A stretch of DNA of 64,000 nt, from the NCBI GenBank assembly GCA_903825245.1, contig CAIJZX010000014.1, positions 1,655 through 65,654 of the forward strand, given 5' to 3'. Origin of the DNA: Candidatus Kerfeldbacteria bacterium (GTDB taxonomy: Bacteria; Patescibacteriota; Patescibacteriia; SBBC01; CAIJZX01). The notes beneath the pieces are model-generated. The model ran no database searches, was not told the DNA's origin, and worked only from the letters and a program-made list of their open reading frames with translations. Within the stretch, counting starts at the first letter, position 1, and each line of letters begins with the position of its first letter. The position numbers and the translations under genes are program-made. Shown here in pieces: positions 4,300-40,768 of this stretch.

Positions 4300-6111
4300 A
4301 TGGCCGATAATCTCAAAATTGCGTTTAGCCTACCGAAAAAACCCGGCGTCTATCTCTACCACAACGACGAGGACGTTGTGATCTATGTCGGCAAAGCGAT
4401 CAACCTCCGATCGCGGGTTTCGTCATACTTCCGAAAATCGGCCAACCTCCCGCTGGCGAAGCAACTGATGGTCGAACAAATCACCCGCATCGAACACATT
4501 ATTGTTCGTTCGGAAACTGAGGCGCTCCTTCTCGAATCGACGTTAATAAAAAAATATCGTCCGAAATATAATGTTCTGCTCAAGGACGATAAGTTTTTTC
4601 AATACATCAAGATTCACCTCAAGGATCGTTTTCCACAAGTCGAAACCGTGCGCAAAGTCACGATCGACGGTAGTCGCTATTTCGGTCCGTATACCTCCGG
4701 ACTTGCCGTTCGACAAACGATGCGCTTACTGAAACGTTTGTTCCCCTATAAAAGTTGTAATAATGACATAAGCGTTCCCTGTTTTGATTACCAGCTCGGT
4801 CGCTGTCTCGGCCATGACGTTGATCCCAGCAACGAACAGCGGTACCGCGAGGTGATAAAAAAACTCATTACCTTTCTCGAGGGCAACACCGGCACCGTGC
4901 TGACGGAATTGAAAAAAGATATGAAGGTTGCGGCGGCGCGACGTGATTTTGAGAGCGCGGCGCTGTATCGCGATCGCCTCCACGCCTTGCGACACATTAT
5001 CGAACAGCAGACGGTGATCACGCCGCGCCGCGATTCGTTTGATGTTCTCGCCCTCGCCAGGCGCGACGACCTTGCGGCAGTGAATTTATTTCAGGTACGC
5101 CAAGGCAAACTCGTGCAACGCGACCAGTTTATGCTCCAGCACGTCCGCGAACAAAGTGACAGCGATGTTCTGGTGGCGTTCATCGAACAGTACTACAGTC
5201 AATCGACGGTTCATCCGCGGCTCATTATTACACCAGTAACGTTGCCAACCGACAGCGGCAACGGCTTGCAACTCAACATCGTTCGCGCTCAGCGCGGATT
5301 AAAGAAAAAATTAGTCAGCATGGGTACGGAAAACGCCGAAGATTATTTGCGGCGCGAACAGGAACGGTGGATGACGGAAGAATCGAAAGCAAAACTCGGA
5401 CTTGAGGAATTAGCGCGCGCGTTGCGATTAGATGAACCGCCGAAAAGGATTGAAATGTACGATATTTCGCATTTCCAGAGTACCAACGTCGTCGGTTCGA
5501 TGGTGGTGTTCGAAAACGGCCTACCAAAAAAATCTGATTACCGAAAATTCACTATTCGCGACACCACGATTCCTGACGATCAACACCGATTAGCCGAGGT
5601 GGTACGACGAAGATTTAGCCACCACACTCATAATGAAGATGAATCGGCCCCCTCCTCAGCGAGGAGGGGTGTAGGGGTGGTCAACGACGCATGGCCCACG
5701 CCCGACCTTCTCCTCCTCGACGGCGGCAAAGGCCAACTCTCTGTCGTCACGAAGAATGTGCCGGGATTACTGCAACATATTCGCGTCGCCGCATTAGCTA
5801 AGGAAAATGAAGAGCTCTTTGTGCCCGGAAAATCATCGCCGATTCGCCTACCGGAAGGATCACAGGAGCTTTTTCTCATCCAACGGATTCGCGATGAAGC
5901 CCATCGATTTGCTATCGGCTTCTATCGGAAAAAACATCGTCGCGAAACAACGAAATCAATTCTCGATGAAATCCCCGGCCTCGGTGCGAAGCAACGACAG
6001 GCTCTCCTCAAAACATTCGGTACGCTCGATGGTATTCGCACGGCTGATGAAGAGCAGATTGCAGAAATTGTCGGAGGTCGATTGGCCAAAACGATTCTAG
6101 CGAGAATATAA
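4300..6111 (+). CDS. uvrC: Excinuclease ABC subunit C
   Basis: N-terminal GIY-YIG motifs (VYLYHNDEDVVIYVGKAINLRSRV), the conserved WPTPDLLLLDGGKGQL motif and a C-terminal HhH region. An extended -10 (TGtTATACT, 4282-4290) ends 9 nt before the ATG, which suggests a leaderless mRNA. Confidence 0.92.
   Translation: MADNLKIAFSLPKKPGVYLYHNDEDVVIYVGKAINLRSRVSSYFRKSANLPLAKQLMVEQITRIEHIIVRSETEALLLESTLIKKYRPKYNVLLKDDKFFQYIKIHLKDRFPQVETVRKVTIDGSRYFGPYTSGLAVRQTMRLLKRLFPYKSCNNDISVPCFDYQLGRCLGHDVDPSNEQRYREVIKKLITFLEGNTGTVLTELKKDMKVAAARRDFESAALYRDRLHALRHIIEQQTVITPRRDSFDVLALARRDDLAAVNLFQVRQGKLVQRDQFMLQHVREQSDSDVLVAFIEQYYSQSTVHPRLIITPVTLPTDSGNGLQLNIVRAQRGLKKKLVSMGTENAEDYLRREQERWMTEESKAKLGLEELARALRLDEPPKRIEMYDISHFQSTNVVGSMVVFENGLPKKSDYRKFTIRDTTIPDDQHRLAEVVRRRFSHHTHNEDESAPSSARRGVGVVNDAWPTPDLLLLDGGKGQLSVVTKNVPGLLQHIRVAALAKENEELFVPGKSSPIRLPEGSQELFLIQRIRDEAHRFAIGFYRKKHRRETTKSILDEIPGLGAKQRQALLKTFGTLDGIRTADEEQIAEIVGGRLAKTILARI
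5646..5680. repeat. GA-rich palindromic element (GGCCCCCTCCTC-AGC-GAGGAGGGGT-GTAGGGG) inserted in-frame inside uvrC
   Basis: Perfect 9-bp stem CCCCTCCTC/GAGGAGGGG at 5649-5669. The same ~38-nt element recurs in intergenic DNA at 27294-27335 and, in extended form, at 32708-32803. Within uvrC it encodes ...ESAPSSARRGVGVV... just before the conserved WPTPDLLLLDGG motif. Confidence 0.7.
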
Positions 6112-10370: not shown

Positions 10371-12137
10371 ATGGCTAAACGACCAAAGGCGCGCATGCGC
10401 CGGCCTGACGGACCAAATTATACCCGTCGGCCACAACCGAAACCGAAAGACGGCGAACGCGCTCCCAGCGAGAACGGCAACGTCTTGAAAATTATTCCGC
10501 TCGGCGGCAACGAAGAAACCGGCGGACGAAACTGTTCCGTTATTCAATACGGACGAGAACTCCTGATCGTCGATATGGGCCTCCAATGGCCGGAAGACGA
10601 CATGCCCGGCGTCGATTACATCATTCCTGATGTCAGTTTTTTGCGCGGCAAAGAAAAAGATATCCGCGGCGTGATTATCACCCACGGCCACTACGACCAC
10701 ACCGGCGGCGTCCCGCACATTATTCCGACCCTCGGCAATCCGCCAATCTACGCTTCGGACCTAACCTGCGCGATGCTCCAGAAAAAAATGGAAGACATCG
10801 CGCCGGAAAAGAAATTACGATTGAATAAAGTAAAATCACGCGACCGCATTAAGCTTGGTGCTTTCCGCGTGGAATTCTTTGCGCTCTCGCACAACATTCC
10901 AGGTTCGCTCGGCATCGCCGTCGAAACACCGGCTGGCCGCGTCGTCCACACCGGCGACTTCAAACTCGACTTGCACGCCCACGTCTCGAATCGCACCGAC
11001 ATCGAAACGATCAAACAGATCGGCGACAAAGGCGTCATGTGTTTGATGTGCGACTCGACGAATTCCTACGCGCCAGGACATCAAGTATCCGAAGAAGAAG
11101 TCGAGAAAAACGTTGAACTCATGTTCAGCCAAACAAAAGGCCGCATGATTGTCGCTACCTTTGCTTCGTTACTGTCTCGCGTCCAACAAATTCTCGTGGC
11201 CGCTGAACGACACAATCGCAAAGTCTTGGTTGAAGGCTTCTCCATGAAGACCAACATCGAGATCGGAAAACAACTTGGCTACATTCGTTGTAAACCGAAT
11301 ACTATCATCACCTGGGAAGAAGCACAGAAGATGCCGCCGCACGGGTACCTGATTCTCTGCACCGGCGCACAAGGCGAAGACAACGCCGCCTTGATGCGCA
11401 TCGCCAATCGCGAACATAAATATTTACACATTGAACGTGGCGACCTCGTCGTCTTCTCATCGTCCGTTATTCCGGGCAATGATCGCGCAGTATCACGCCT
11501 CAAGGATGGTCTATTACGCGAAGGCGCCTCGATTATCGACTCGAAAATGCTCGATATTCACGCCGGCGGACATGCGAAGCAGGAAGACATCGCCGATTTG
11601 ATTAAACTCCTGCGACCGAAGTACTTCATGCCAATCGAAGGCAATTATGGCTCGCTCCTCGAGAACAAGCAAATCGCTATCCGCGCCGGCGTACCGGAAA
11701 ATAATAATCTCATCGCCGACAACGGCCAAGTTGTTGAATTCCATTCCGGACAAGGATATGTCACGAGCGTTCGCCATCCGATCGAGTACGTCTTCGTCGA
11801 CGGCCTCGGTATCGGTGACGTTAACGCGCTCGTCTTGCGCGACCGAAAACAACTCGCTGGCGACGGCATGATTGTGGTTATCGCCCAAATTAATACTCGC
11901 GGCGGTAAACCGGGAAAAATCGATGTCATCTCTCGCGGCCTGACGCACATGAAAGAGCAAGGACGATTCATTAGCGGCATGATTGCCGTCGTAAAAAAGT
12001 CCGTGGCCGATAAAGAACCGCGCATGAAACCACAAGAAAAAGATTTGCGCGATAAAATCCGCCGCGACTTGGAAAAGTTTGTCTTCCAGCGCACCCATCG
12101 CCAACCGATGATCGTACCGGTCATCATTGAGGCATAA
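10371..12137 (+). CDS. rnj: Ribonuclease J (metallo-beta-lactamase / beta-CASP)
   Basis: Motif ITHGHYDHTGG, the beta-CASP region and C-terminal domain typical of RNase J, 588 aa. No SD is present. Confidence 0.9.
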   Translation: MAKRPKARMRRPDGPNYTRRPQPKPKDGERAPSENGNVLKIIPLGGNEETGGRNCSVIQYGRELLIVDMGLQWPEDDMPGVDYIIPDVSFLRGKEKDIRGVIITHGHYDHTGGVPHIIPTLGNPPIYASDLTCAMLQKKMEDIAPEKKLRLNKVKSRDRIKLGAFRVEFFALSHNIPGSLGIAVETPAGRVVHTGDFKLDLHAHVSNRTDIETIKQIGDKGVMCLMCDSTNSYAPGHQVSEEEVEKNVELMFSQTKGRMIVATFASLLSRVQQILVAAERHNRKVLVEGFSMKTNIEIGKQLGYIRCKPNTIITWEEAQKMPPHGYLILCTGAQGEDNAALMRIANREHKYLHIERGDLVVFSSSVIPGNDRAVSRLKDGLLREGASIIDSKMLDIHAGGHAKQEDIADLIKLLRPKYFMPIEGNYGSLLENKQIAIRAGVPENNNLIADNGQVVEFHSGQGYVTSVRHPIEYVFVDGLGIGDVNALVLRDRKQLAGDGMIVVIAQINTRGGKPGKIDVISRGLTHMKEQGRFISGMIAVVKKSVADKEPRMKPQEKDLRDKIRRDLEKFVFQRTHRQPMIVPVIIEA

Positions 12138-27254: not shown

Positions 27255-27293
27255 TTATACGTCATCTTTATCAGGCGAGAGAATCGTTAATTC

Positions 27294-27335
27294 GGCCCCC
27301 TCCTCAAGTGAGGAGGGGTAAGGGGAGGTGAAAAA
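27294..27335. repeat. GA-rich palindromic element GGCCCCCTCCTC-AAGT-GAGGAGGGGT-AAGGGGAGGTG
   Basis: Same family as the copy inside uvrC (5646-5680) and the extended copy at 32708-32803. This one is intergenic, between convergent genes. Confidence 0.7.
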
Positions 27336-31475: not shown

Positions 31476-32567
31476 TTATTCCGCCTTCTCTTCCGCCGGT
31501 TCGTCAGCAACCGCCGCCGGTTTTGTTCCAGCATCATCTTCCGCTTGGCGGTCTTTCGCTACTTCAAGAACCTTCTTCCGAAGCTCATCGATAATTTTTG
31601 GATTATCTTGCAAATATTGCTTCGAGGCTTCGCGGCCAACGCCGAATTTAATTTCACCGTAGGAAACGGTGTTACCGGATTTCGTCAGCACACCGTAGAG
31701 CAACGCCGTGTCGAGTACATCGGATACCAGTGAAATCCCTTGGTTGTACATGATGTCGAACTCAGCTACGCGGAACGGAGCGGCGACTTTGTTCTTCACA
31801 ATTTTCGCCTTGGTGCGGTTGCCGATAATCTTATCACCGAGTTTCAACTGACCAATGCGGCGAACTTCGATACGAACCGAGCAGTAGAATTTCAAGGCTG
31901 TCCCACCAGTCGTCGTTTCCGGATTACCGAAGAAGACGCCGATCTTCATGCGCGTCTGGTTGATGAAGATAACGATGGTTTTCGTCTTTGACACGATGGC
32001 CGTGAGCTTACGCAATGCTTGCGACATCAATCGCGCTTGCAAGCCCATATGTGAATCGCCCATCTCACCTTCAATTTCCGCTTTTGGCGTTAAGGCCGCG
32101 ACCGAGTCAATGACGACGACGTCAACCGCATTCGAGCGCACCAGTGTTTCCACGATTTCTAACGCTTGTTCACCTGAGTCCGGTTGTGAGATTAAGAGTT
32201 CATCAACATTCACGCCAATCTTTCGCGCGTAGCTTGGATCAAGAGCGTGTTCGGCATCAACGAAGGCGGCGGTTCCGCCGGCGCGCTGTACTTCCGCCAC
32301 AATGTGTTGTGCCAACGTGGTTTTTCCCGACGCTTCCGGTCCGAAGATTTCAATCACCCGACCGCGCGGCACGCCGCCCACGCCGAGCGCTAAATCTAAC
32401 GACAAACATCCCGTGGAGACGACATCGACGTCCATCGCCCGGGCTTCACTAAATTTCATAATCGATCCTTCACCGAAACGCTCTCGGATCTGATCGACCG
32501 CCGTTTGCGCGGCCGCATTTTTTATCTTACCGGCGTCAGCACCGGCGCTTTTTTGGCTCTTGGCCAT
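31476..32567 (-). CDS. recA: Recombinase A
   Basis: Walker [14 protein letters not shown], RecA loops L1 and L2, and an acidic C-terminus. 363 aa. Confidence 0.93.
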
Positions 32568-32707
32568 ATGGTTATTCCTTTCTTACCGCACGTCTTCCCA
32601 CAAATCGGGGACAGTCGGGGTTTAATGAATTAATGATACCCGAAGAATAACCGAATGTCAACAAAAGATATCCACAAGCTTTTTATGTCGTAATAATGCG
32701 GTATTTC

Positions 32708-32803
32708 GGCCCTCTCCTTGGATAAGGGGAGGTGAAGGAGGGGTCACAAAACCACCATTTTTTCACCACCTCCCCTTCACCCCTCCTCGGCTGAGGAGGG
32801 GGC
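32708..32803. repeat. Extended (~95-bp) composite GA-rich palindrome of the same family as 5646-5680 and 27294-27335
   Basis: GGCCCTCTCC..AAGGGGAGGTGAAGGAGGGGTCAC-AAAACCACCATTTTTT-CACCACCTCCCCTTCACCCCTCCTC-GGCT-GAGGAGGGGGCC. It contains the hairpin CCCCTCCTC/GAGGAGGGG and lies immediately upstream of the island promoter. Confidence 0.65.
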
Positions 32804-32814
32804 CGGATTGGGTC

Positions 32815-32843
32815 TTGACAAAATCCCCTACTTGTCCTATACT
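32815..32843 (+). promoter_or_regulatory. Consensus promoter TTGACA-N17-TATACT at the head of the small-gene island
   Basis: Hexamers at 32815-32820 and 32838-32843. It is the only consensus-quality + strand promoter found between here and the terminator at 37727-37750. Confidence 0.5.
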
Positions 32844-32907
32844 GTCCAGTTCTTTAAATCCATAAATTACTTCTACTTCGCCCACGTGAGCAGACGCGGC
32901 GCGAACG

Positions 32908-32965
32908 ACGGGTGCGTTGTCTTGATTACTCTGCTCATGTAGTCACTACGACGCACCCGTTTTTC
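32908..32965 (+). promoter_or_regulatory. Attenuator-like leader hairpin (ACGGGTGCG ...35-nt loop... CGCACCCGT followed by TTTTT), with a possible competing pairing TGAGCAGA/TCTGCTCA
   Basis: A 9-bp stem plus T5, lying between the promoter and the first island ORF. TGAGCAGA at 32887-32894 can pair with TCTGCTCA at 32930-32937, which sits inside the terminator loop. Confidence 0.4.
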
Positions 32966-32995
32966 GTTCAGACTTCATTTACCATAGGAGGATGT

Positions 32996-33205
32996 GTGAC
33001 TGCCCTAGAACGTGACACACGTGTGTCCATCATCATCGGAATCGCTGCCCTCTGTAGCATTACCTTGGTGGTTGGCGGAACTATGGCCAAATGTATCGGT
33101 ATGGCCACCAAGTGCGCAGGCGTGGTGATTGGTGGCGGCATCATCGCTGCCGTTTGTGTCGCCGCCTGGGGCTTGTACAGGTCTTATCAGACCACACGAA
33201 AGTAG
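32996..33205 (+). CDS. Island ORF A: small two-TM, Gly-rich membrane peptide (GTG start, 69 aa; longest ORF from 32912)
   Basis: AGGAGG 4 nt before the GTG. Product ...IIIGIAALCSITLVVGGTMAKCIGMATKCAGVVIGGGIIAAVCVAAWGLYRSYQTTRK, with glycine-zipper-like GxxxG motifs. Confidence 0.45.
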   Translation: MTALERDTRVSIIIGIAALCSITLVVGGTMAKCIGMATKCAGVVIGGGIIAAVCVAAWGLYRSYQTTRK

Positions 33206-33364
33206 CTCGTACCATCTACACAGATGTAAAACGTGAGGGAGGGAGAACAGCCACGTTTTCCTCCCACTCTCACATGAATTGATCACTACTGGTCACATCA
33301 TGCGAGAGGTCTGTACCTTGACTCTCAATAAAGAAAATACTGCGTTCCCGTTTTTCGTTCAACG
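33203..33364. repeat. Type-1 inter-ORF unit, copy 1 (~160 bp), starting at the ORF A stop codon
   Basis: TAGCTCGTACCATC...GTGAGGGAGGGAG..CCTCCCACTCTCAC-ATGAATTGATCACTACTGGTCACATCATGCGAGAGGTCTGTACCTTGACTCTCAATAAAGAAAATACTGCGTTCCCGTTTTTCGTTCAACG. The last ~100 nt are identical to copy 3. Confidence 0.75.
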
Positions 33365-33386
33365 TACTTCAACAAAGGGACACCCA

Positions 33387-33557
33387 ATGCTTCGTTCATT
33401 GGCACTGCTGGCTTGGATATGTCTCGCGTCATTAATCCATGACTGCGAAAGATACGTCTGGCGCTGCAAGGTGAAGAGACTTCGGAAGACACTCAATGGT
33501 CGAAATCATGAGTTGGATGTCTTCTTGAAGAATCTCGAGGAATACTACGCGATGTAG
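33387..33557 (+). CDS. Island ORF B: 56-aa protein with a hydrophobic N-terminus (MLRSLALLAWICLASLIHDCERYVWRCKVKRLRK...)
   Basis: The ATG is preceded by AAAGGGA. The longest ORF (33279) begins inside the repeat, and copy 2 of that repeat carries an in-frame stop, so the upstream part is not coding. Confidence 0.45.
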   Translation: MLRSLALLAWICLASLIHDCERYVWRCKVKRLRKTLNGRNHELDVFLKNLEEYYAM

Positions 33558-33714
33558 TTCGTACCGTCGCCACACGACGTAAACAAGTGAGGGAGGGAGA
33601 ACAGCCACGTTTTCCTCCCACTCTCACATGATTTGGTCACCGTTGGTCACATCATGCGAGAGGTCTGTACCTTGACTCTCAATGAAGAAAATAGCACTCC
33701 CGTTTTTCGTTCAA
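33555..33714. repeat. Type-1 inter-ORF unit, copy 2 (a diverged copy)
   Basis: It starts at the ORF B stop (TAGTTCGTACCGTC...) and shows ~85 % identity to copy 1, including the GTGAGGGAGGGAG hairpin and the CCCGTTTTTCGTTCAACG tail. Confidence 0.75.
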
Positions 33715-33748
33715 CGCTGTGAACCCATACAGCCCTTGGAGGATCATC

Positions 33749-33949
33749 ATGGTTCCTCATCCGCTCAAGCTCAAGCGTGATGAACAGTACCTGCAGAGCA
33801 GTATTGCTCTTCTGATCACGGTTGTCCCCATCGTCGTCATCGTGAGGTATGGCTGGCATGGTTATGCCGTATTATACCTGATCGCCCTCATCATCTTCGC
33901 GATCTACAAGTTCGTCAGGGGCATGATGATCAAGGTCCCGAAGAGCTAG
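33749..33949 (+). CDS. Island ORF C: 66-aa two-TM membrane peptide
   Basis: GGAGGA 5 nt before the ATG. MVPHPLKLKRDEQYLQSSIALLITVVPIVVIVRYGWHGYAVLYLIALIIFAIYKFVRGMMIKVPKS. Confidence 0.5.
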   Translation: MVPHPLKLKRDEQYLQSSIALLITVVPIVVIVRYGWHGYAVLYLIALIIFAIYKFVRGMMIKVPKS

Positions 33950-34120
33950 CCCGCACCATCGCCTCGCGATGAAATTTGTGAGGGAGGATTGAGGAGGGTT
34001 TACCTTTTCTCTTCTCCCTCACCCCTCACATGAATTGATCACTACTGGTCACATCATGCGAGAGGTCTGTACCTTGACTCTCAATAAAGAAAATACTGCG
34101 TTCCCGTTTTTCGTTCCACG
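33947..34120. repeat. Type-1 inter-ORF unit, copy 3
   Basis: It starts at the ORF C stop (TAGCCCGCACCATC...). Its 5' hairpin is the variant GTGAGGGAGGATTGAGGAGGG..CTCCCTCAC, and its 3' ~100 nt are identical to copy 1. Confidence 0.75.
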
Positions 34121-34137
34121 CCAATTCGGAGGTCATC

Positions 34138-34308
34138 ATGAGGATGGGCACGTTCAGCACGATCGAGCGAATTATGGAGGACAACGGACTACCGGTTCCA
34201 AGCGGGCGAGGAAATGAGAAGCTCAACGAAATCGCAAGAATCGTCGAGACTCACGAAATGCCTGAGGATGTCCGACAGCGTCTTCGTAACTTGCTCGCCC
34301 TTCGCTGA
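34138..34308 (+). CDS. Island ORF D: 56-aa hydrophilic protein (MRMGTFSTIERIMEDNGLPVPSGRGNEKLNEIARIVETHEMPEDVRQRLRNLLALR)
   Basis: GGAGG 5 nt before the ATG. It is absent from the ORF track only because it is under 60 aa. It ends just before a shortened leader (CAAGTTTTCGTTCAC). Confidence 0.4.
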   Translation: MRMGTFSTIERIMEDNGLPVPSGRGNEKLNEIARIVETHEMPEDVRQRLRNLLALR

Positions 34309-34366
34309 CTCAACGACAAGCAACGCACAAGTTTTCGTTCACACTTCTCGCTACGGAGGTTACACC

Positions 34367-34615
34367 ATGTCGTCCAATCCGATGACGTCGGAGCAGAAGG
34401 TTACGCAACTCCTGGTAGCGCTCGTGTTGACCATTCTTGGTCTGCCGATCGCCGCGCTTGGTGGTTACGGCATCTACTTTGCCTTCACCAATACCGGTGC
34501 CGATCCCGGCCTCGGATCAGCGGCCATTCTGGTCTTCTGCGTCGGCATCGGCGCTATCGGCATCGCCATCAAGCTGACCAACGATGCGCGTCGGGCGAAG
34601 ACGAGTCCGATCTAG
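34367..34615 (+). CDS. Island ORF E: 82-aa two-TM, Gly-rich membrane peptide
   Basis: GGAGG 7 nt before the ATG. MSSNPMTSEQKVTQLLVALVLTILGLPIAALGGYGIYFAFTNTGADPGLGSAAILVFCVGIGAIGIAIKLTNDARRAKTSPI. Confidence 0.5.
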   Translation: MSSNPMTSEQKVTQLLVALVLTILGLPIAALGGYGIYFAFTNTGADPGLGSAAILVFCVGIGAIGIAIKLTNDARRAKTSPI

Positions 34616-34649
34616 ATGCACCTTGAGATAAGGGGGACCCGCGAGTTCC

Positions 34650-34704
34650 CTTCTCACTCGACTTGAGAACTAATCCAATAGTTGTCCGGTCAAGTGAGAA
34701 AACC
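34650..34704 (+). repeat. Type-2 leader hairpin, copy 1 (TCTCACTCGAC ...loop... GTCAAGTGAGAAAACC)
   Basis: The stem CACTCGAC/GTCAAGTG contains one G-U pair and is followed by GAGAAAA. The motif family recurs upstream of ORFs at 35251, 36142 and 36738. Confidence 0.65.
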
Positions 34705-34745
34705 AAAGTAACATCGTTCCGTCACAATCAAATCTGGAGGATACA

Positions 34746-35105
34746 ATGACCAATCTGGCTTTGGCTGTCACTGTTATTGGCGCCGCCGCTGTCATCGTGG
34801 TTGTCTGGCGCTTCATGCGTCACAAGTTCCGCAACGACGAGATCGCTGTTCCGGACGAACCCACGCCGCCGCAACCGGTCTATAACGATAGGCCCGTGAT
34901 CGAGGCTGAAGAAATCGGTCACGGCGTTTACGAGATCGGGTTCTACGGACGCTTCGATGGGGTCCTGATGGACGTCTTTCCGGAATCCCTCGCCGCCTTC
35001 GTCAAGCAGCACCCCGAGTTGCGGATCATCAGCGTCTGCACCGGACGTGAATCCAGTTACAATGGCTTCACTTCCAGTATGGTTGTGTTGACCGAACTGC
35101 GTTAA
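34746..35105 (+). CDS. Island ORF F: 119-aa protein with an N-terminal TM anchor and a small soluble domain
   Basis: GGAGGA 4 nt before the ATG. MTNLALAVTVIGAAAVIVVVWRFMRHKF... followed by a ~85-aa domain. Confidence 0.55.
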   Translation: MTNLALAVTVIGAAAVIVVVWRFMRHKFRNDEIAVPDEPTPPQPVYNDRPVIEAEEIGHGVYEIGFYGRFDGVLMDVFPESLAAFVKQHPELRIISVCTGRESSYNGFTSSMVVLTELR

Positions 35106-35165
35106 GCACCTTCAACTCGAGCCACCCGGCTCATTGAGAGGATGGATAGCCACATCGTCCTCCTT

Positions 35166-35208
35166 TCACTCGAGTATTGCAAGCAATTGAAATATTCAAG
35201 CGAAACAC
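35166..35208 (+). repeat. Type-2 leader hairpin, copy 2 (a diverged copy: TCACTCGAG...TTCAAGCGAAACAC)
   Basis: It shares TCACTCGAG and the CAAG(T/C)GA(G/A)AAAC tail. A further partial CAACTCGAG...CTCATTGAG lies at 35111-35140. Confidence 0.5.
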
Positions 35209-35250
35209 AGAAAATAGAAACTGCTCTTCACAACACTAGGAGGTTCAAGG

Positions 35251-35484
35251 ATGGACATTCCTGCGTTTCACAGCGTTACGGCTCACAAAGAACATGAATG
35301 TTGTGAATGCCACGAGCGGATTCTTCCGAAGGAGAGGTGCTGGATTCAGTACTGGCCGGATGCTCGTCAGCGTCGGTGGAAGAATGTTTTTACCTGCTCT
35401 CACTGTCGTCCGCAACACGAAGTACCGGCACAGCCTACGCCGGCACCTCAGCCGATCAAGTCTCAGCAGTTGTTGCTTCTGTAG
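35251..35484 (+). CDS. Island ORF G: Cys-rich 77-aa protein (HECCECHERILPKERCW...CSHCRPQH), a zinc-ribbon-like product
   Basis: TAGGAGG 7 nt before the ATG. Two CxxC-like clusters lie about 30 residues apart, followed by a Pro/Gln-rich tail. Confidence 0.55.
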   Translation: MDIPAFHSVTAHKEHECCECHERILPKERCWIQYWPDARQRRWKNVFTCSHCRPQHEVPAQPTPAPQPIKSQQLLLL

Positions 35485-35508
35485 CCCACCTCAACAAGGA
35501 GCTCCAAA

Positions 35509-35967
35509 ATGGAATTCGTCGGGAAGAAGTTCGTGTTGTGGCCATACATGCCGGACATGCCCAGCGTGCAGTATCGCGACCAGCATGGCATTCTCCATTG
35601 GGGTCGACGCATCGAGAGAGAAATCGTCGTCACAATCGAAAATGAATCGACAAATGCGTCAGGACACGGCACCGACCTCGTCGCTCGTGACAAGGACGGC
35701 ATGCTGTATCAGTCGACCTGGGACGAGAGCAATTCCCGTCCCTACCGCGTCTGGTGGTACGTCGAGGGCGGCCGTGTGATCCTGCTCACGAATGCGATCA
35801 ATCTCTACAACGAACGTCCGACCGCATTCATCCGTCCCGATGGCACCCGCGCTGTCCCGGCAATCGCCACGGTCTGCGCCAAACATGACGAGGTATGCTT
35901 GTCGAATGGCGAATGCCCCATGTGCATGATGGAGAAGCATCGCGCCAAGCTGCAAGGTTCCGTCTAG
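35509..35967 (+). CDS. Island ORF H: hypothetical 152-aa protein with a C-terminal Cys cluster (CAKHDEVCLSNGECPMC)
   Basis: AAGGAG 7 nt before the ATG. It lies 24 nt after ORF G and is probably co-transcribed with it. The competing ORFs at 35294..35779 and 35307..35645 lack an RBS. Confidence 0.55.
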   Translation: MEFVGKKFVLWPYMPDMPSVQYRDQHGILHWGRRIEREIVVTIENESTNASGHGTDLVARDKDGMLYQSTWDESNSRPYRVWWYVEGGRVILLTNAINLYNERPTAFIRPDGTRAVPAIATVCAKHDEVCLSNGECPMCMMEKHRAKLQGSV

Positions 35968-36037
35968 ACCTCCTAGCTGTTCTCGCCTGCCGCGCAATTC
36001 TACGTTCACTTCGGTGGATATGGATTGCGCGGCGGGC

Positions 36038-36084
36038 TCTCACTCGAGCGTTTCACAACCGTGGAACGTTCAAGTGAGAAAACG
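36038..36084 (+). repeat. Type-2 leader hairpin, copy 3 (CTCTCACTCGAGCGTT...AACGTTCAAGTGAGAAAACG)
   Basis: A 14-nt stem with one mismatch and one G-U pair, followed by GTCACAAT as in copy 1. Confidence 0.65.
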
Positions 36085-36141
36085 AAAAGAAATACTGTTC
36101 TGTCACAATTCATCGCTTTACGCGAAGAGAGGAGCAGCATA

Positions 36142-36570
36142 ATGAGTTTGCTTGCGGCTTGTTTGTTGATCGCGGCCGTAGTGTTCCTGGTGGTAGCCAT
36201 TTTTCAGGATCGGGCGCGGTTTCGTGAGTTGGAAAAAAGGAGGAATCTGGAGCGGTGCGAATCACGGCACGCGCAAAACTTCCTCGAGCTGGAGATCAAG
36301 ATCCTCCGATATGTTCATGGCCACAAGCGCCTGCCCAAGAACATGGACCTTGTGCGCGGCATGAATATGAACCCGGATTATACCAACCCCTTCAGCGGAA
36401 ATCCGGCCAATGTCAATGACGTGACCGGGCTGGAGGAGATGCGAATCATCCTGCCCCATGATCTGACGTTCGAGATCTTGGCTCCGGAAGGTCCCGGATC
36501 GGAACGATGTGTCATCGCCCTGAATGATGCAAACGGCCAAGTGATGTGTCGGAGGACCATTTACGCGTAA
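36142..36570 (+). CDS. Island ORF: 142-aa protein with an N-terminal signal/anchor (MSLLAACLLIAAVVFLVVAIF) and a soluble domain
   Basis: GAGGAG 8 nt before the ATG. The longest ORF (36025) would begin inside the leader hairpin. Confidence 0.5.
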   Translation: MSLLAACLLIAAVVFLVVAIFQDRARFRELEKRRNLERCESRHAQNFLELEIKILRYVHGHKRLPKNMDLVRGMNMNPDYTNPFSGNPANVNDVTGLEEMRIILPHDLTFEILAPEGPGSERCVIALNDANGQVMCRRTIYA

Positions 36571-36636
36571 ACCGAGATCACAACCAACTGGTTTTCGAGA
36601 GATTTTCCCTGGCTCACGCCAAAAATAATCTCTCAG

Positions 36637-36697
36637 TTTCACTCGAGCGTTTCAGCGCCGCCTGCTCGCGGAACTGGAGCGCTCAAGTGAGAAAAGA
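36637..36697 (+). repeat. Type-2 leader hairpin, copy 4 (TTTCACTCGAGCG ...33-nt loop... CGCTCAAGTGAGAAAAG)
   Basis: The stem CACTCGAGCG/CGCTCAAGTG has one G-U pair, and the GAGAAAA tail is the same as in the other copies. Confidence 0.65.
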
Positions 36698-36737
36698 AAA
36701 TTGTAAAAACCGTTCATTCCAACTGAAGGAGAGTGCT

Positions 36738-37421
36738 ATGTCCACTTGTGCGCAGGAGGAATTCCTAGCCACACACGTCACATGTCGACCATATCGAGTG
36801 TCTGATCGGCGGGAAATTCGTCAGCTGATGTGTAATACCGCAATTATGGGCAATCCGATCGACCTGCAATGCACCGATCGCGAGCTCATTGCCGATTTGT
36901 TCACCCGGTACTACACCGACGTCACGCCGGGATGGATCTGGGTGCTCGAATTTCGCGGACGCCTCGTCGGTTACCTGATGGGTTGTCCGGACACGAAGCT
37001 GTTCCAGAAGTATATGGACGACGTCTACCCCAGTATCCTGCTCGGCGTCCTGCGTCGCGGATCGCTCTTCCGTTCCGGTTCAGCCGGCTTTCTGTGGCGG
37101 ACAATCGGAGACATTCTCGGAAAGGTACTTCGTCGCGAACCGCTCGAGTATTACAATCCGGCGTTTCCGGCTCACGCTCACCTGAATGTTTTGCCCGAAG
37201 GTCGTTCATCTACGTACCAGCTCGCTGCCCGATTTCTGAAGCAGCTCAGACAGCATAATGTGCCTGGGATCATGGTTGAAATCTGGGCCGAGAATGCCCA
37301 CATGGCCACCCTGCTGGAACACCATCGTTTTCAGAAGGTCCATTCCACCACCATGCCCGGCATGCGTCAGTCGAACGGTTATCCGTACCATGTCGCCACC
37401 TACGTCCGATCGCTGTTGTAG
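36738..37421 (+). CDS. Island ORF: GNAT-family N-acetyltransferase-like protein (227 aa)
   Basis: AAGGAG 7 nt before the ATG. A GNAT-like central and C-terminal region (GRLVGYLMG...NVLPEGRSSTYQLAARFLKQLRQHNVPGIMVEIWAENAHMATLLEHHRFQKV). The assignment is by motif resemblance only. Confidence 0.45.
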   Translation: MSTCAQEEFLATHVTCRPYRVSDRREIRQLMCNTAIMGNPIDLQCTDRELIADLFTRYYTDVTPGWIWVLEFRGRLVGYLMGCPDTKLFQKYMDDVYPSILLGVLRRGSLFRSGSAGFLWRTIGDILGKVLRREPLEYYNPAFPAHAHLNVLPEGRSSTYQLAARFLKQLRQHNVPGIMVEIWAENAHMATLLEHHRFQKVHSTTMPGMRQSNGYPYHVATYVRSLL

Positions 37422-37448
37422 CCTCACCCCTCACACAAGGAGCCGCAC

Positions 37449-37730
37449 GTGATCCAGTGGATGCTGTTGCTGGTAATTCTGGCTATGTTCTTCTCGCTCA
37501 TCAACAGCCGCGACAAAGGGTTGGACCAGATCATTTCCGGCTGGGTCATCTGGACTGGCTGGCTGTGGATTCTCATTCCCGGCGCCATGTTCGGCAACGA
37601 GATTCTCCGTTCGATCGGTGCACCGAATATCCGGATCTTCCAGTCCGGGTCGTGGCAGCCGCTCGGTCCGATGGTTCTCGGCGCGATCCTGCTCTTTTCC
37701 TGGCATCGCCGCCAGGCCAAACACAACTAA
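37449..37730 (+). CDS. Island ORF: 93-aa multi-TM membrane protein (GTG start)
   Basis: AAGGAG 6 nt before the GTG. Three hydrophobic helices (MIQWMLLLVILAMFFSLI..., WVIWTGWLWILIPGAMF, LGPMVLGAILLFSW). It is followed immediately by a strong terminator. Confidence 0.55.
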   Translation: MIQWMLLLVILAMFFSLINSRDKGLDQIISGWVIWTGWLWILIPGAMFGNEILRSIGAPNIRIFQSGSWQPLGPMVLGAILLFSWHRRQAKHN

Positions 37731-37750
37731 CCTTCGGGTTAGTTTTTTTT
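37727..37750 (+). terminator. Rho-independent terminator CTAACC-TTCG-GGTTAG followed by T8 at the end of the island; it overlaps the stop of the convergent RodZ-like gene
   Basis: A 6-bp stem with a TTCG tetraloop and eight T residues on the + strand. Confidence 0.6.
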
Positions 37751-38411
37751 ATTCCACGAGCACTTGCCGTATCACAACTCGAGCTGAACTGTGTTTCTTT
37801 ATTGCAGAAATTTTCAATGTATTAAGTCCGGTGTGTAGGTCAATCGTCAAAGTAAATGAACCAGCTGTCGTTTGCACTGCTTCGTCGTTTATTGTAACGG
37901 TCGCATTAGGGTCGGTTTTTCCGGTAATAGTCATTGTTGTTTGCTTCGTAGCAATATCGCGACTTGGTTGTGTGATGAGCAATTGTGGTGGAAGAAAGTT
38001 TTGTATTACTTGCAAGCCGATATAGGCGAACACCGCAACCAGTATTATTCCAGCCGCAATAAAACGAATGTATTTCCGTCCCCAAGAAAAATCGGTATTC
38101 GCACGAGGTGTGAGTAGTGGCCGTGAGGCTGGTCCAGTTTTTGTGACCACGGCATATTCTTGCTCAAAAATGCCGATCGCCATCGCCACATCGGTTTCTA
38201 ATAATTCAGCATAACGACGAACGAATTGTTTGGCATATACCTGGCCAGGCAAATCACGATACCGCGAGGATTCAATCGCCACTAAATACTTCGGCGAGAT
38301 GTGTAATCGCGAAGCAACATCCTCAATCGTCAATCGGCTTTCGTTTCGAAGTGTTTGGAGGCGATCACCGAGCGTCGCCCCATCAACTAGCGGCCGCTTC
38401 GAGAAGGTCAT
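37749..38411 (-). CDS. RodZ-like XRE-family helix-turn-helix membrane protein
   Basis: An N-terminal HTH (LGDRLQTLRNESRLTIEDVASRLHISPKYLVAIE), a single TM helix (IRFIAAGIILVAVFAYIGL) and a C-terminal beta-rich domain. It overlaps the ftsK stop by 4 nt. Confidence 0.7.
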   Translation of the reverse strand: MTFSKRPLVDGATLGDRLQTLRNESRLTIEDVASRLHISPKYLVAIESSRYRDLPGQVYAKQFVRRYAELLETDVAMAIGIFEQEYAVVTKTGPASRPLLTPRANTDFSWGRKYIRFIAAGIILVAVFAYIGLQVIQNFLPPQLLITQPSRDIATKQTTMTITGKTDPNATVTINDEAVQTTAGSFTLTIDLHTGLNTLKISAIKKHSSARVVIRQVLVE

Positions 38412-40768
38412 CCCGTTACGTCGTTGTTATCTTCACTCGGCTCCTCAATAACTTCTTCCGGTTGCGTAGGCGGCACATCATCATCGATTGGCAAATCACG
38501 CGGATCAACCGGCACCCCGGCAGCTGCAGACGTAGAATTAGAACCTGCGTCACGCTCAGTTGAACCTGCGATGGAATCTGTTGAGCCATAAATTTCTCGC
38601 GGTTTTGCGCCCATGCCCGGACCGATAAATCCTTGCTGCTCGAGAAGATCCATAATACGCGCAGCACGCGCATACCCAAGACGTAAATGGCGTTGCAAGA
38701 GCGTCGTCGAGGCTTTTCCGGTTTGCAGAATAATATCTCGCGCCTGACCAAGAAGCTCATCATCACCTAGGTCTTCCAGGCTACCGCCGATTTGTGGCGC
38801 TGGCTTATCGACAATGTCGGTCATGTAATCCGGCTTACCGCGTTGCTTGAGGTATTGCGTGACGCGTTCGACTTCTTTTTCCGAAACGTAGGCACCCTGA
38901 AGTCGCTTTGGTTTTGAGAGTTCAGCTGACATGTAGAGCATGTCACCCTTACCAAGGAGTTTTTCCGCACCCGAGGTATCAAGAATAGTGCGCGAATCAA
39001 TTTGCGAAGCCACACTGAAAGCTGCACGAGCCGTCACGTTAGCTTTTATTAAACCAGTGATGACGTCAACTGATGGTCGTTGGGTCGCTAAGACCAAGTG
39101 AATGCCGACCGCGCGAGCCATTTGCGCTAAACGAACAATCGCCGCTTCAACTTCCTTCGCCGCCACGGTCATTAAATCAGCTAACTCATCAATAATAACC
39201 ACGATGTATGGCATATCGTCGCTCACTTCTTTGCGGTACGAAGAAATATTCCGCTTCCCAGCATTCTGTAATACTTGATAGCGTCGATCCATTTCCGATA
39301 CGACCCAGCGCAAGGCGTTAATGGTCTTCGTGGTGTCGGTAATAACTGGCGTTAGCAAGTGCGGAATATCGTTGTACAGCGATAATTCGACACGCTTCGG
39401 GTCGACAAGAATCAGCTTTAAATCATCCGGCGAATTACTAAAGAGCAAGCTTAAAATTAAACTATTAATTTGCACCGATTTTCCTGAACCGGTTGCACCG
39501 GCGATCAATAAGTGCGGCAACGGTTCGAGATTGGCGACCCATGGTGCACCGGACACATCTTTACCAAGACTGAAGCTCAAATCCGATTTGCGCATGCGGA
39601 ACGCATCGGATGACAAAATCTCGCGGAGATTGACAATAGCCACGCTCTGGTTCGGCACTTCAATACCGACCAGTGACTTGCCCGGAATTGGCGCCTCAAT
39701 ACGAATTGGGTGCGCTGCTAGCGCCAAGGCTAAGTCGTTACTCAGTGAAGCAATTTGTGCTAGACGCACGCCCTCAGCTGGTTTCAGTGTGAACTGCGTA
39801 ACCGTTGGACCAACGTTGACGTCGCCCATTTCAACCGAGATACCAAAAGTTTCTAGCGCCCGTCTGATTTTTTCTTTATTGGCCTCGATGTTACCGCTCG
39901 TTGGTTTGCCGCCCGAAAGATCAAGTAAATCAAATGGGATAACGATGTGCCGTTTCTCCCTCTTCGGTTTCGGCGGTAATGGAACCATTTCTTCTTCGAC
40001 GTGTTCACCGCTAGCGCTTTCCGTTTTTACATCGGAAATTTCCTGTTTGGTAAATTCTGGATCTTGTGCGCCGTTAGCGTCATCAATCACGTCTTGGTCG
40101 TTCGCGTCATGAGCGAGTTTTCGCTGCCACCATCGATTGCGCATCCAAGCCATAAACCACGCCGGGAGATTTGCTTGTTGGCCAAGCCCCTTGAGCGATG
40201 TATTAAACATGATGAGTAAGCCGATCAAGAACAAACCAACCATAATCACGCCGGCGGCAGCCGCGCCAAGGCCCTGGCGCAATGGGTAATCCATCAACAC
40301 GCCGAGATACCCGCCGCCATCGCCGTTGATTGCTCGCGCGACTGAATCGCCGATCGGTAAGAATAACTGCATAATCCCGGCGAGGCTGAATACCGAAATA
40401 CCAAAGCCGATCCACTGCGCGATGGTGATGTGGAATTTTTCCGGAAACAGCAGGTAAATACCGATGACGGCGAGGTAAACCCACAGCACATACCGCTGCC
40501 AGCCGACTAAGGTGCCGAGTCCCCGACCGAGCGCGCCGCCGCCGGTACTAGCGTGGTTAAAGACGCTCAATCCGATAACCGCCGCGGCCAAAAAAAGAAT
40601 GACGATCGTAATCGCCCGACGTGTTTCTGGGGTAAGTTTCGGCATCGGCAATTCAGCTGGTGCGCGCCGTTCCGATTTCTCGTTGCCCCTGGCGCGTGAA
40701 CGCCTGCTGGATCGTGTCGACTGAGCCATAGAAGTGCTAACTATAGCATAAATGCGAAGGTTCGACAA
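38408..40768 (-). CDS. ftsK: DNA translocase FtsK/SpoIIIE
   Basis: N-terminal TM helices, a Pro/charged linker, a motor domain with Walker A GATGSGKSV, and a C-terminal gamma (winged-helix) domain. Confidence 0.9.
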   Translation of the reverse strand: MSNLRIYAIVSTSMAQSTRSSRRSRARGNEKSERRAPAELPMPKLTPETRRAITIVILFLAAAVIGLSVFNHASTGGGALGRGLGTLVGWQRYVLWVYLAVIGIYLLFPEKFHITIAQWIGFGISVFSLAGIMQLFLPIGDSVARAINGDGGGYLGVLMDYPLRQGLGAAAAGVIMVGLFLIGLLIMFNTSLKGLGQQANLPAWFMAWMRNRWWQRKLAHDANDQDVIDDANGAQDPEFTKQEISDVKTESASGEHVEEEMVPLPPKPKREKRHIVIPFDLLDLSGGKPTSGNIEANKEKIRRALETFGISVEMGDVNVGPTVTQFTLKPAEGVRLAQIASLSNDLALALAAHPIRIEAPIPGKSLVGIEVPNQSVAIVNLREILSSDAFRMRKSDLSFSLGKDVSGAPWVANLEPLPHLLIAGATGSGKSVQINSLILSLLFSNSPDDLKLILVDPKRVELSLYNDIPHLLTPVITDTTKTINALRWVVSEMDRRYQVLQNAGKRNISSYRKEVSDDMPYIVVIIDELADLMTVAAKEVEAAIVRLAQMARAVGIHLVLATQRPSVDVITGLIKANVTARAAFSVASQIDSRTILDTSGAEKLLGKGDMLYMSAELSKPKRLQGAYVSEKEVERVTQYLKQRGKPDYMTDIVDKPAPQIGGSLEDLGDDELLGQARDIILQTGKASTTLLQRHLRLGYARAARIMDLLEQQGFIGPGMGAKPREIYGSTDSIAGSTERDAGSNSTSAAAGVPVDPRDLPIDDDVPPTQPEEVIEEPSEDNNDVTG

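Follow-up and report, generated by a model that had tools for sequence, protein, structure and literature searches.

Hairpin-bearing intergenic units in a variable gene island next to recA of a Kerfeldbacteria-like genome

The stretch of DNA analysed here, called the window, comprises 64 kb of Candidatus Kerfeldbacteria sequence, in which a run of small orphan genes, the island, lies between recA and a rodZ-like gene. After the first three open reading frames (ORFs) of the island, A, B and C, the stop codon opens a composite unit of about 160 bp, present in three direct copies on the + strand (u1, u2 and u3; Table 1), and related units occupy other spacers of the island and the corresponding islands of relatives. 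These units contain hairpins with compensatory base changes, are confined to such islands in the sequence searched and lie there on the coding strand. The three copies hold no sigma-70 promoter, terminator or conserved reading frame, and the tail motif near their 3' end bounds a gene cassette in two genomes. We propose, with a probability of roughly one half, that the units serve both as punctuation between cistrons at the RNA level and as portable homology for cassette shuffling, within a single operon controlled by an attenuator.

Repeated units and their conserved hairpins

The three type-1 units are the sole long repeat family in the window. The preliminary description of this DNA had recorded conserved units of about 160 bp behind ORFs A, B and C, and all three were located there. 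It had given the identity of copies 1 and 3 as about 100 nt; the long identical block exists and measures 92 nt (33269-33360 = 34025-34116). Copy 2, put at about 85% identity, proved closer, with 144 of 159 positions (91%) identical between u1 and u2, including runs of 45 nt (33233-33277 = 33587-33631), 40 nt (33290-33329) and 19 nt. The three copies have an unchanged 40-nt core in common, TGGTCACATCATGCGAGAGGTCTGTACCTTGACTCTCAAT. The copies are mosaic, u1 having its 5' hairpin in common with u2 and its 3' part in common with u3, which points to recombination or gene conversion and not to simple duplication. The ORFs that flank the units have no similarity with one another, as had been stated, and because the genes between the copies are unrelated, a simple tandem duplication does not explain them.

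Each unit consists of several separate hairpins without end-to-end pairing, and no terminal inverted repeats were found in the units. The first hairpin, H0, has the consensus CACCATC-loop-GATGTAAA and starts 0-8 nt past the stop codon. It is followed by an A-tract, by the GC-rich hairpin H1 (GGGAGGG...CCTCCC) and by H2, which in u1 reads CTCTC-A-CATGA..TGATCA-CTAC-TGGTCA..TCATG-C-GAGAG, with an A·C 1x1 loop at 33272/33303. After H2 of u1 comes GTCTGTACCTTGACTCTCAAT, in which GACTCTC is able to pair with GAGAGGTC, giving hairpin H3 as an alternative. The hairpin GTGAGGG...CTCTCAC of the preliminary description is one of two competing folds: RNAalifold favours a long H1, a short H2 and H3, whereas single-sequence folds favour a short H1 and a long H2. 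It does not extend to the third copy, in which the hairpin after ORF C (33978-34022) is longer, differs in sequence from H1 of u1 and u2, and is related to a hairpin of the relative L002. In u2, which has a 2-nt deletion, H1 is identical to that of u1 and the apical stem of H2 uses two G·U pairs. The unit ends with an A-rich stretch and the tail, and about 20 nt farther on stands the Shine-Dalgarno sequence of the next ORF.

Type-2 units occupy spacers farther down the island (Table 1). Their H2 has the form TCACTCGAG...TCAAGTGAG, and the family is kept in four other genomes; the unit between ORFs E and F is about 90% identical to a unit of L007 and close in sequence to the leader hairpin of L001. 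Type-2 units and the island spacers of L001, L002, L003, L006 and L007 follow one plan, consisting of H0 and/or a GC hairpin, H2 and an A-rich stretch, and the base of H2 in them is YTCWCTCGAG...TCAAGWGAGR. One H2 of L003 has the type-1 apex TGATCAC...TGGTCAC, and a second unit of L003 has CTCTCG.../...CGAGAG followed by ACCTTAACTCTCA. About six genomes with such islands were covered, the source genome being represented in the searches by the window alone. The five other genomes with H0, H2 and tail have a recA 88-92% identical, or an HTH_25 protein 60-66% identical, to that of the window.

Base pairing in H2 is maintained through sequence change. In type-1 H2 (five sequences), 92% of the cells are paired and 7 of 18 pairs have changed on both sides, which none of 500 shuffles reached. 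In type-2 H2 (ten sequences), 95% are paired, and 10 of 18 pairs and 27 cells have changed on both sides (0 of 500 shuffles); pairing was 30-49% when the partner was slid as a control. The 21 H2 hairpins have 16-27 bp, and in about 18 of them a 1x1 internal loop (A/C) interrupts the stem 4-10 bp up from the base. Compensatory changes occur in H0 as well, where A-U has become G-C in u2 and the fifth pairs differ. Three columns are predominantly G·U, single hairpins contain up to six G·U pairs, and the summed folding energy of H2 is -510 kcal/mol on the coding strand as against -485 kcal/mol on the opposite strand. As structures the hairpins are under selection, and they most likely act as RNA of the coding strand, as is argued for H2 by its covariation and by the G·U pairs on that strand.

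Strict patterns for H0, for type-2 H2 and for type-1 H2 with arm 3, applied to both strands of 497 kb, matched solely in islands and on the coding strand. A covariance-model search had been suggested in the preliminary description; the model built here, R1, comprised ten type-2 H2 copies and was searched over 456 kb. It returned its training set and six further copies, all inside islands on the coding strand, and gave no match in more distant relatives. Five H2 copies of the CTCTCTCGAC subtype, which had been misaligned by MAFFT and excluded from R1, were then recovered by it. Neither the units nor the operon leader had a match in Rfam 15 (E up to 5), the exact 34-mer core had none in viral contigs, and the pattern GAGGTCTGTAC-N15-45-GTTTTTCGTTC had none in genome or metagenome contigs, collections that do not include the source genome. 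No species but this one yielded the type-1 sequence in full; elsewhere only parts of it were found (H0, a relative of H2 in L003, and the tail).

This restriction to one species, like the 92-nt identity of u1 and u3, would suit a recent local triplication without function, in which near-identity would stem from duplication or gene conversion, the hairpins would be generic and the variability of the locus incidental. The preliminary description had held such a triplication to be the simpler explanation should the units be absent from every related genome. Related elements are present in five other genomes, where H0, H2 and the tail have kept their place, their strand and their fold, with compensatory changes, and a triplication of this kind, already disfavoured, is very unlikely.

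The strand on which the hairpins act also bears on a second explanation, in which the units would be small RNA genes of the opposite strand, as in type I toxin-antitoxin systems, with an antisense RNA running from near the tail to H1 and TTTTAC and controlling the gene of a small hydrophobic protein. ORFs A and C do encode small two-helix membrane proteins, and TTGAAC-17-TATTTT stands on the - strand ahead of H3, H2 and H1, the last followed by (G)TTTTAC in several genomes; whole units fold slightly more stably on that strand, where A·C mismatches turn into G·U. However, this promoter has only 8 of 12 matches and a 15-nt spacer in u2, type-2 units are without an equivalent, and the scan gave no terminator on the - strand. 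Pairing of the G·U-rich apical stems of H2 is restricted to the coding strand, ORF D and several other island proteins are not hydrophobic, and in relatives genes of 150-230 aa are followed by these modules as well. Of the explanations considered, this one appears the least probable.

The operon leader and the content of the spacers

A single good sigma-70 promoter precedes the units on their strand (Table 1), and it is kept in L001, L002, L003, L007 and L044. The leader behind it is 81% identical to that of L002, and promoter and leader together are kept in L002, L003, L007 and L044; for the leader, the comparison showed conservation in five genomes. The start of the leader transcript carries CTGTTCTTTAAAT, and the invariant CCACGTGAGCAGACG contains GAGCAG, which is able to pair with CTGCTC in the loop of the leader terminator. 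This terminator is a 14-bp hairpin (32909-32963) with TTTTTCGTT directly after the stem in the fold; the stem differs between genomes, by G·U changes in L002 and L007 and by a different stem in L003. The leader, of an uncharacterised conserved class, may be a riboswitch-like or protein-dependent attenuator. In L007, an extra hairpin of about 50 nt (GCATTGCCCCGTACCACAAC...GTTGTTGGTACCGGGG) is located inside the terminator loop (8010-7950, - strand). The island operon has canonical terminators in two places only, its leader and the end of the island, and the islands of L002 and L006 are closed by equivalent terminators. Because there is one promoter and canonical terminators are limited to these two places, the island is probably one transcription unit.

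The tail of the units corresponds to the 3' arm and T-run of the leader terminator, which form the leader tail at 32956-32970. Its 5' partner is absent from the units, and the tail was rejected as a terminator there, because without the ascending arm no terminator hairpin can form. Of the RNA roles raised in the preliminary description, conserved modules stand, as covarying hairpins; attenuation applies to the leader and not to the units, because the tail, as the 3' half of the leader terminator only, has no 5' partner in them.

No sigma-70 pair and no terminator-like site was found by a scan of either strand of 33203-34122, which agrees with the earlier failure to place a sigma-70 promoter inside the unit. 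The hexamers TTGACT and AATACT lie only 12 nt apart in the units, and the second, -10-like hexamer is damaged in u2 (AATAGC). No hairpin of the units, H1 and H2 included, is followed by a T-run. By-eye readings of the core and tail as sigma-54, extracytoplasmic function (ECF)-type or LexA-box sites were discarded, since their spacings are unfit and they are not common to the units. Translation of the units, which the preliminary description had named as evidence that would count against it, was also rejected: an ATG frame shares the phase of ORF B in u1 but not that of ORF D in u3, and in u2 it is broken or shortened by the 2-nt indel.

These absences bear on a comparison with the promoter early stem-loop (PeSL) elements of T4-like phages, in which a promoter and a GGGG..CCCC stem-loop flank ORFans in hyperplastic regions (PMC2839356; PMC4122927). 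If the units were terminator/promoter cassettes of this kind, H1 or H2 would stop transcription and a promoter of the unit's own would restart it, so that each gene would be independent. The behaviour of the locus fits the PeSL description, and the GC-rich GGGAGGG...CCTCCC hairpin lies ahead of an A-rich stretch. The unit also has CCTTGACT, which agrees with the island promoter in its -35 context, and AATACT, a near match to the leader's TATACT; the sequence past AATACT resembles the start region of the main promoter, and one type-2 unit contains TTGAAA-17-GAAAAT. Nevertheless, the 12-nt distance between the hexamers, the lack of a passing sigma-70 pair in u1, u2 and u3, and the damaged hexamer of u2 speak against a promoter, and no T-run follows the unit hairpins, though this lineage has canonical terminators in the leader and at island ends. 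We regard independent transcription of each gene from such cassettes as unlikely.

Tail motif, cassette boundaries and apparent loss of genes

The tail CCCGTTTTTCGTTCA is exact at 32956, 33347 and 33699 and has one mismatch at 34103. Its presence in the leader hairpin ahead of ORF A, noticed in the preliminary description, is therefore exact, and the shortened form reported before ORF E was likewise found, as GTTTTCGTTCA at 34331-34341. Over CCCGTTTTTCGTTCA..ACTTCA, the u1 tail and the leader match at 22 of 25 positions, a value that none of 300 shuffles equalled. Genome-specific variants of the leader arm, identified by eye, recur in the units of the same genome (ACGTACC in L002 and CGCACYTG in L007). 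The similarity between the L001 leader and TTGACTCTCAA was not significant (58 of 300 shuffles).

One cassette is that of ORF D, whose homologues are 88-89% identical. In L044 (JGI 3300045331), D is the first gene, located right behind the leader and beside recA. Similarity between the window and L044 starts exactly at CCCGTTTT, 35 nt ahead of the ATG of D, and ends exactly at GTTTT(A)CGTTCA, 33 nt past its stop codon (0 of 300 shuffles at either end). Upstream of CCCGTTTT lies a type-1 unit in the window versus the leader terminator in L044. Because the shared stretch ends at tail motifs, both genomes have cassette D between copies of the tail, and the cassette behaviour for which the preliminary description had proposed to compare unit and ORF boundaries is seen in the window and in L044. 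In L043, gene D has its own promoter and another context. ORF E is the fifth gene of the window island and the first of the L003 island; the regions upstream of it in the two were not significantly similar (53 of 300 shuffles).

Contigs of the same European Nucleotide Archive (ENA) study are 99.5-100% identical to the window, and three of them (L039, L040 and L041) retain its gene order. In L042 (ERZ18626558; reported in two samples, plus two similar places), window positions 32656-33364 are fused to 34025-34660, giving the order A, hybrid u1/u3 unit, D, E; the segment B-u2-C is gone via the 92-nt identical block. Other contigs with ORF A break off within u1, 72-118 nt past the stop codon of A, which is usual for assemblies at a repeat. 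L042 may represent a real deletion variant or an assembly chimera. Together with the mosaic copies and with the tail-bounded cassette D, this apparent deletion supports the recombination-site reading that was among those first offered for the units.

Dedicated integron-like sites are one way in which such exchange could be brought about: H2 or the tail would be recognised by a recombinase that inserts or excises circular cassettes at the leader. The co-oriented, promoterless cassettes behind a single promoter, the position of cassette D between direct tail repeats and directly behind the leader in L044, and the recurrence of leader-arm variants in the units of L002 and L007 speak for this; a junction repeat of 14-15 bp is short for RecA, and H2 resembles attC in layout, its base being conserved, one position unpaired and the apex variable. 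However, Pfam detected neither an integrase nor a transposase in 30 window proteins (10 from the island and 20 flanking), and the annotated flanks of relatives, which consist of housekeeping genes, likewise showed none. The attC consensus RYYYAAC...GTTRRRY as one long hairpin is absent, the up to six G·U pairs in H2 stems fit RNA better than single-stranded DNA, and the L042 junction falls inside the 92-nt identical block, as ordinary homologous recombination would give. Such sites are distinctly unlikely. Rather unlikely, too, is a chromosomal system of cassette capture that resembles integrons without having the integron integrase. Circular or incoming cassettes would each bring an ORF together with its trailing hairpins and a tail, and they would enter beside the sole promoter, in the 3' arm of the leader terminator. 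Older cassettes would be pushed downstream, one tail copy would be left per junction, and a recombination or processing factor would recognise H2, in which the A·C is fixed.

In the explanation that we prefer, the small orphan genes, most of them for membrane proteins, would form one polycistronic operon, and the units would be spacers in it that are transcribed but not translated. The 5' two-thirds of a unit, with H0, H1 and H2, would be the trailer of the upstream cassette. Its hairpins may act as barriers to exonucleases (a gene for RNase J is located in the window at 10371-12137) or as a processing site that is double-strand-specific or recognised by a protein, and H2 is possibly a processing or protein-binding site of RNase III size. 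Such punctuation would give each cistron its own stability and keep neighbours from interfering. The 3' third, the tail, would be a copy of the descending arm of the leader terminator, its T-run and the start of the 5' untranslated region (UTR), left where cassettes have been joined to leader-type sequence. Because the units are long, near-identical direct repeats, they could work as portable homology at the DNA level, and recombination between them would delete, convert and exchange cassettes. In this proposal, the polycistronic transcript, the processing or stabilising role and the recombination pathway are inferred.

Several observations weigh against this explanation. Whole-unit folding energies show no clear preference for the coding strand, being slightly more favourable on the - strand; the A·C mismatch of H2 would be G·U on that strand, where the A-tract before H1 becomes a terminator-like hairpin followed by TTTTAC. 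One type-2 unit holds a sigma-70 match of 9/12, and the units may contain internal promoters of an unrecognised type. Because about six genomes carry islands, the covariation rests on few lineages, and because the full type-1 sequence occurs in one species only, its near-identity may reflect recent duplication. L042 is a short metagenome scaffold and a possible assembly chimera across the 92-nt repeat. Finally, exact identity in the tail extends over just 14-15 bp, which is short for RecA-dependent exchange.

The island in its setting and among known systems

The island is a run of about 5 kb comprising 11 small + strand ORFs (A to K, 32996-37730), located between the rodZ-like gene, which ftsK adjoins on the side far from the island, and recA (31476-32567, - strand). 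The 64-kb window otherwise consists of core genome, including rpoB/C-like genes, ftsK, the rodZ-like gene, recA, efp and genes for SHMT, RNase J and UvrC, among others, and its sole tRNA genes are distant from the island. The closest recA proteins are from Patescibacteria, the named matches being from Kerfeldbacteria and Magasanikbacteria, and the loci retrieved with the neighbouring HTH_25 (rodZ-like) protein are metagenome-assembled genomes (MAGs) of Kerfeldbacteria or Patescibacteria. Judged from these recA relatives and named loci, the genome belongs to a Patescibacteria/Kerfeldbacteria-like group.

The order ftsK, HTH_25, island, recA, efp recurs in relatives, with islands of 0 to 11 unrelated genes: none in L004, two in L001, four in L006, about seven in L007, about nine in L003 and 11 in L002. 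Gene content is almost wholly unrelated between islands, and only E and K are common to the window and a relative. ORF K (37449-37730; a membrane protein of 93 aa) is the last gene of the island, as is its counterpart in L002 (3780-4031, 54% identity), and a terminal terminator follows in both. Because K and the terminator end both islands, the 3' end of the island is conserved like the leader, with the middle turning over.

Table 1. Coordinates of units, operon signals and selected ORFs (positions in the window unless a locus is named)
Feature	Position	Strand	Details
u1	33203-33365	+	From stop codon TAG of ORF A; H0 33213-33226; A-tract; H1 33237-33265; H2 33267-33308; H3 (alternative) 33304-33311 with 33320-33326; A-rich stretch 33327-33340; tail 33347-33361
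u2	33555-33718	+	H0 33565-33579; H1 33591-33619; H2 33621-33662; arm 3 33674-33680; tail 33699-33713
u3	33947-34122	+	H0 33957-33971; H1 33978-34022; H2 34025-34064; tail 34103-34117
u3-specific CACGCCAATTCGG	34118-34130		
Type-2 unit E/F	34616-34745	+	H2 34649-34703 (TCACTCGAC...GTCAAGTGAG); model R1 E 1.9e-4, copy outside the training set
Type-2 unit F/G	35106-35250	+	H2 35160-35209
Type-2 unit H/I	35968-36141	+	Long GC hairpin, then H2 36034-36083
Type-2 unit I/J	36571-36737	+	H2 36633-36696
Cassette D	34103-34341	+	Tail, 5' UTR, ORF D, 22-nt spacer, short tail; common to L044
Island sigma-70 promoter	32815-32843	+	TTGACA-17-TATACT, 11/12 matches; sole good + strand promoter ahead of units
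Operon leader	32846-32995	+	150 nt; conserved CAGTTCTTTAAAT and CCACGTGAGCAGACG, then terminator hairpin, then TTTTTCGTTCA
Leader counterpart, L002	9160-9011	-	
Leader counterpart, L003	8805-8652	-	
Leader counterpart, L007	8075-7884	-	
Leader counterpart, L044	355-507		
Terminal intrinsic terminator	37725-37752	+	8-bp stem, then T8, after ORF K
ORF A	32996-33205	+	69 aa, GTG start, two-helix membrane protein; exact protein on 11 public contigs
ORF B	33387-33557	+	56 aa, hydrophobic N-terminus, weak Shine-Dalgarno
ORF C	33749-33949	+	66 aa, two-helix membrane protein; called on L039-L041
ORF D	34138-34308	+	56 aa; exact match in public protein collection
ORF G	35251-35484	+	77 aa

Island proteins A-K are orphans in Pfam, with no function assigned, and most have predicted membrane helices. 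ORFs A, C and D are real genes, called on public contigs, A and D being exact protein matches. For ORF B, a search of a collection of 15 billion proteins returned no entry, not even the query itself, while its neighbours A, C and D are present, and B is not called on L039. Because of this absence and its weak Shine-Dalgarno sequence, the status of B as a gene is uncertain, and it may be a non-gene or a decaying cassette. In one public contig, an opposite-strand ORF of 58 aa is called in the region of B instead. ORF G carries two CxxC pairs and is zinc-ribbon-like. Two junctions of the island are free of units, namely G-H, where the gap is only 24 nt, and J-K.

Other features of the region were also recorded. 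The recA promoter (32633-32661, - strand; TTGACA-17-TATCAT) has a direct repeat, TTCGG-N7-TTCGG, in its spacer, and TTCGG motifs are also present upstream of recA in L002, L003, L006 and L044; the repeat may be an operator. GC-rich intergenic palindromes of the form CCCCTCCTC-NNNN-GAGGAGGGG(T)GAAGGGG, located at 5644-5684, 27292-27332 and 32700-32806, one of them between the recA and island promoters, look like REP-like elements (repetitive extragenic palindromes, REPs) or bidirectional terminators, and the Rfam miRNA matches at these palindromes were dismissed as chance matches to a long hairpin. A match to the SAM_alpha riboswitch inside the ftsK coding sequence (40172-40253, - strand; 22.8 bits versus a gathering threshold of 36, E 0.13) is most likely due to chance. 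The MAGs of L004/L011, L003/L013 and L006/L017, which are syntenic and have a recA 87-89% identical, are titled 'uncultured Gammaproteobacteria bacterium' in public records, which is probably a taxonomic mislabel of genomes of the candidate phyla radiation (CPR).

Hairpins between cistrons are familiar from the early operon of phage T7, with its RNase III hairpins, and from the stabiliser hairpins of Escherichia coli operons, which are REPs or bacterial interspersed mosaic elements (BIMEs); REPs are dispersed genome-wide. The units are like these in the size and position of their hairpins: the cistrons are separated by related stems of about 20 bp, each with an internal loop, and stable 3' hairpins without T-runs are present. 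Cleavage or stabilisation would be putative functions here. We know of no described counterpart to the A·C 1x1 loop that is conserved in H2 or to an H0 so near the stop codon. In contrast to REP/BIME elements and to miniature inverted-repeat transposable elements (MITEs), all motif and model matches of the units are confined to islands in the 456-497 kb searched, and the units lack terminal inverted repeats. As compared with an intrinsic terminator or attenuator, they have the descending arm and T-run in the tail without the ascending arm.

With integrons the island shares its one-ORF, co-oriented, promoterless cassettes behind a single promoter, all 11 ORFs being on the + strand, a repeated element right after stop codons, the first-in-line position of cassette D in L044, and the resemblance of H2 to attC described above. 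It differs from them in having no integrase among the 30 window proteins and no RYYYAAC/GTTRRRY boxes in the required arrangement, in the several separate hairpins per unit with G·U-rich stems that suit RNA, and in a deletion whose junction falls within a long stretch of identity.

Among described systems the PeSLs come closest, although the scan did not find their defining promoter here. PeSL copies recombine to give indels and mini-circles, and the authors who described them stated that no such shuffling of regulatory cassettes was known in cellular organisms (PMC2839356; PMC4122927). Both systems consist of repeated composite intergenic motifs with a G-run/C-run stem-loop, in mosaic copies that flank small orphan ORFs of a hyperplastic region between core genes, and in both, recombination between copies removes or swaps ORFs (here in L042, possibly an assembly artefact). 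The units differ from PeSLs in having no sigma-70 promoter of workable spacing (16-18 nt in PeSL) and no T-run terminator, in being much longer, at about 160 nt with three hairpins, in residing on a CPR chromosome instead of a phage genome, and in that part of each unit copies an arm of the operon's leader terminator.

Shuffling of cassettes bounded by repeats in a hyperplastic slot is itself already known; what is new here is H0 and H2 as structured motifs, the latter with a conserved A·C loop, together with a conserved leader that is uncharacterised. CPR bacteria, or Patescibacteria, have tiny and otherwise highly syntenic genomes, in which the variation of surface and host-interaction proteins is poorly understood. 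The present locus is a fixed chromosomal slot whose content is fully replaced between close relatives, with conserved RNA-hairpin modules separating its genes and a repeated junction motif derived from the operon's own terminator. If the proposed explanation is true, the island would be a cellular counterpart of PeSL cassette shuffling that is free of promoters and uses RNA punctuation in their place.

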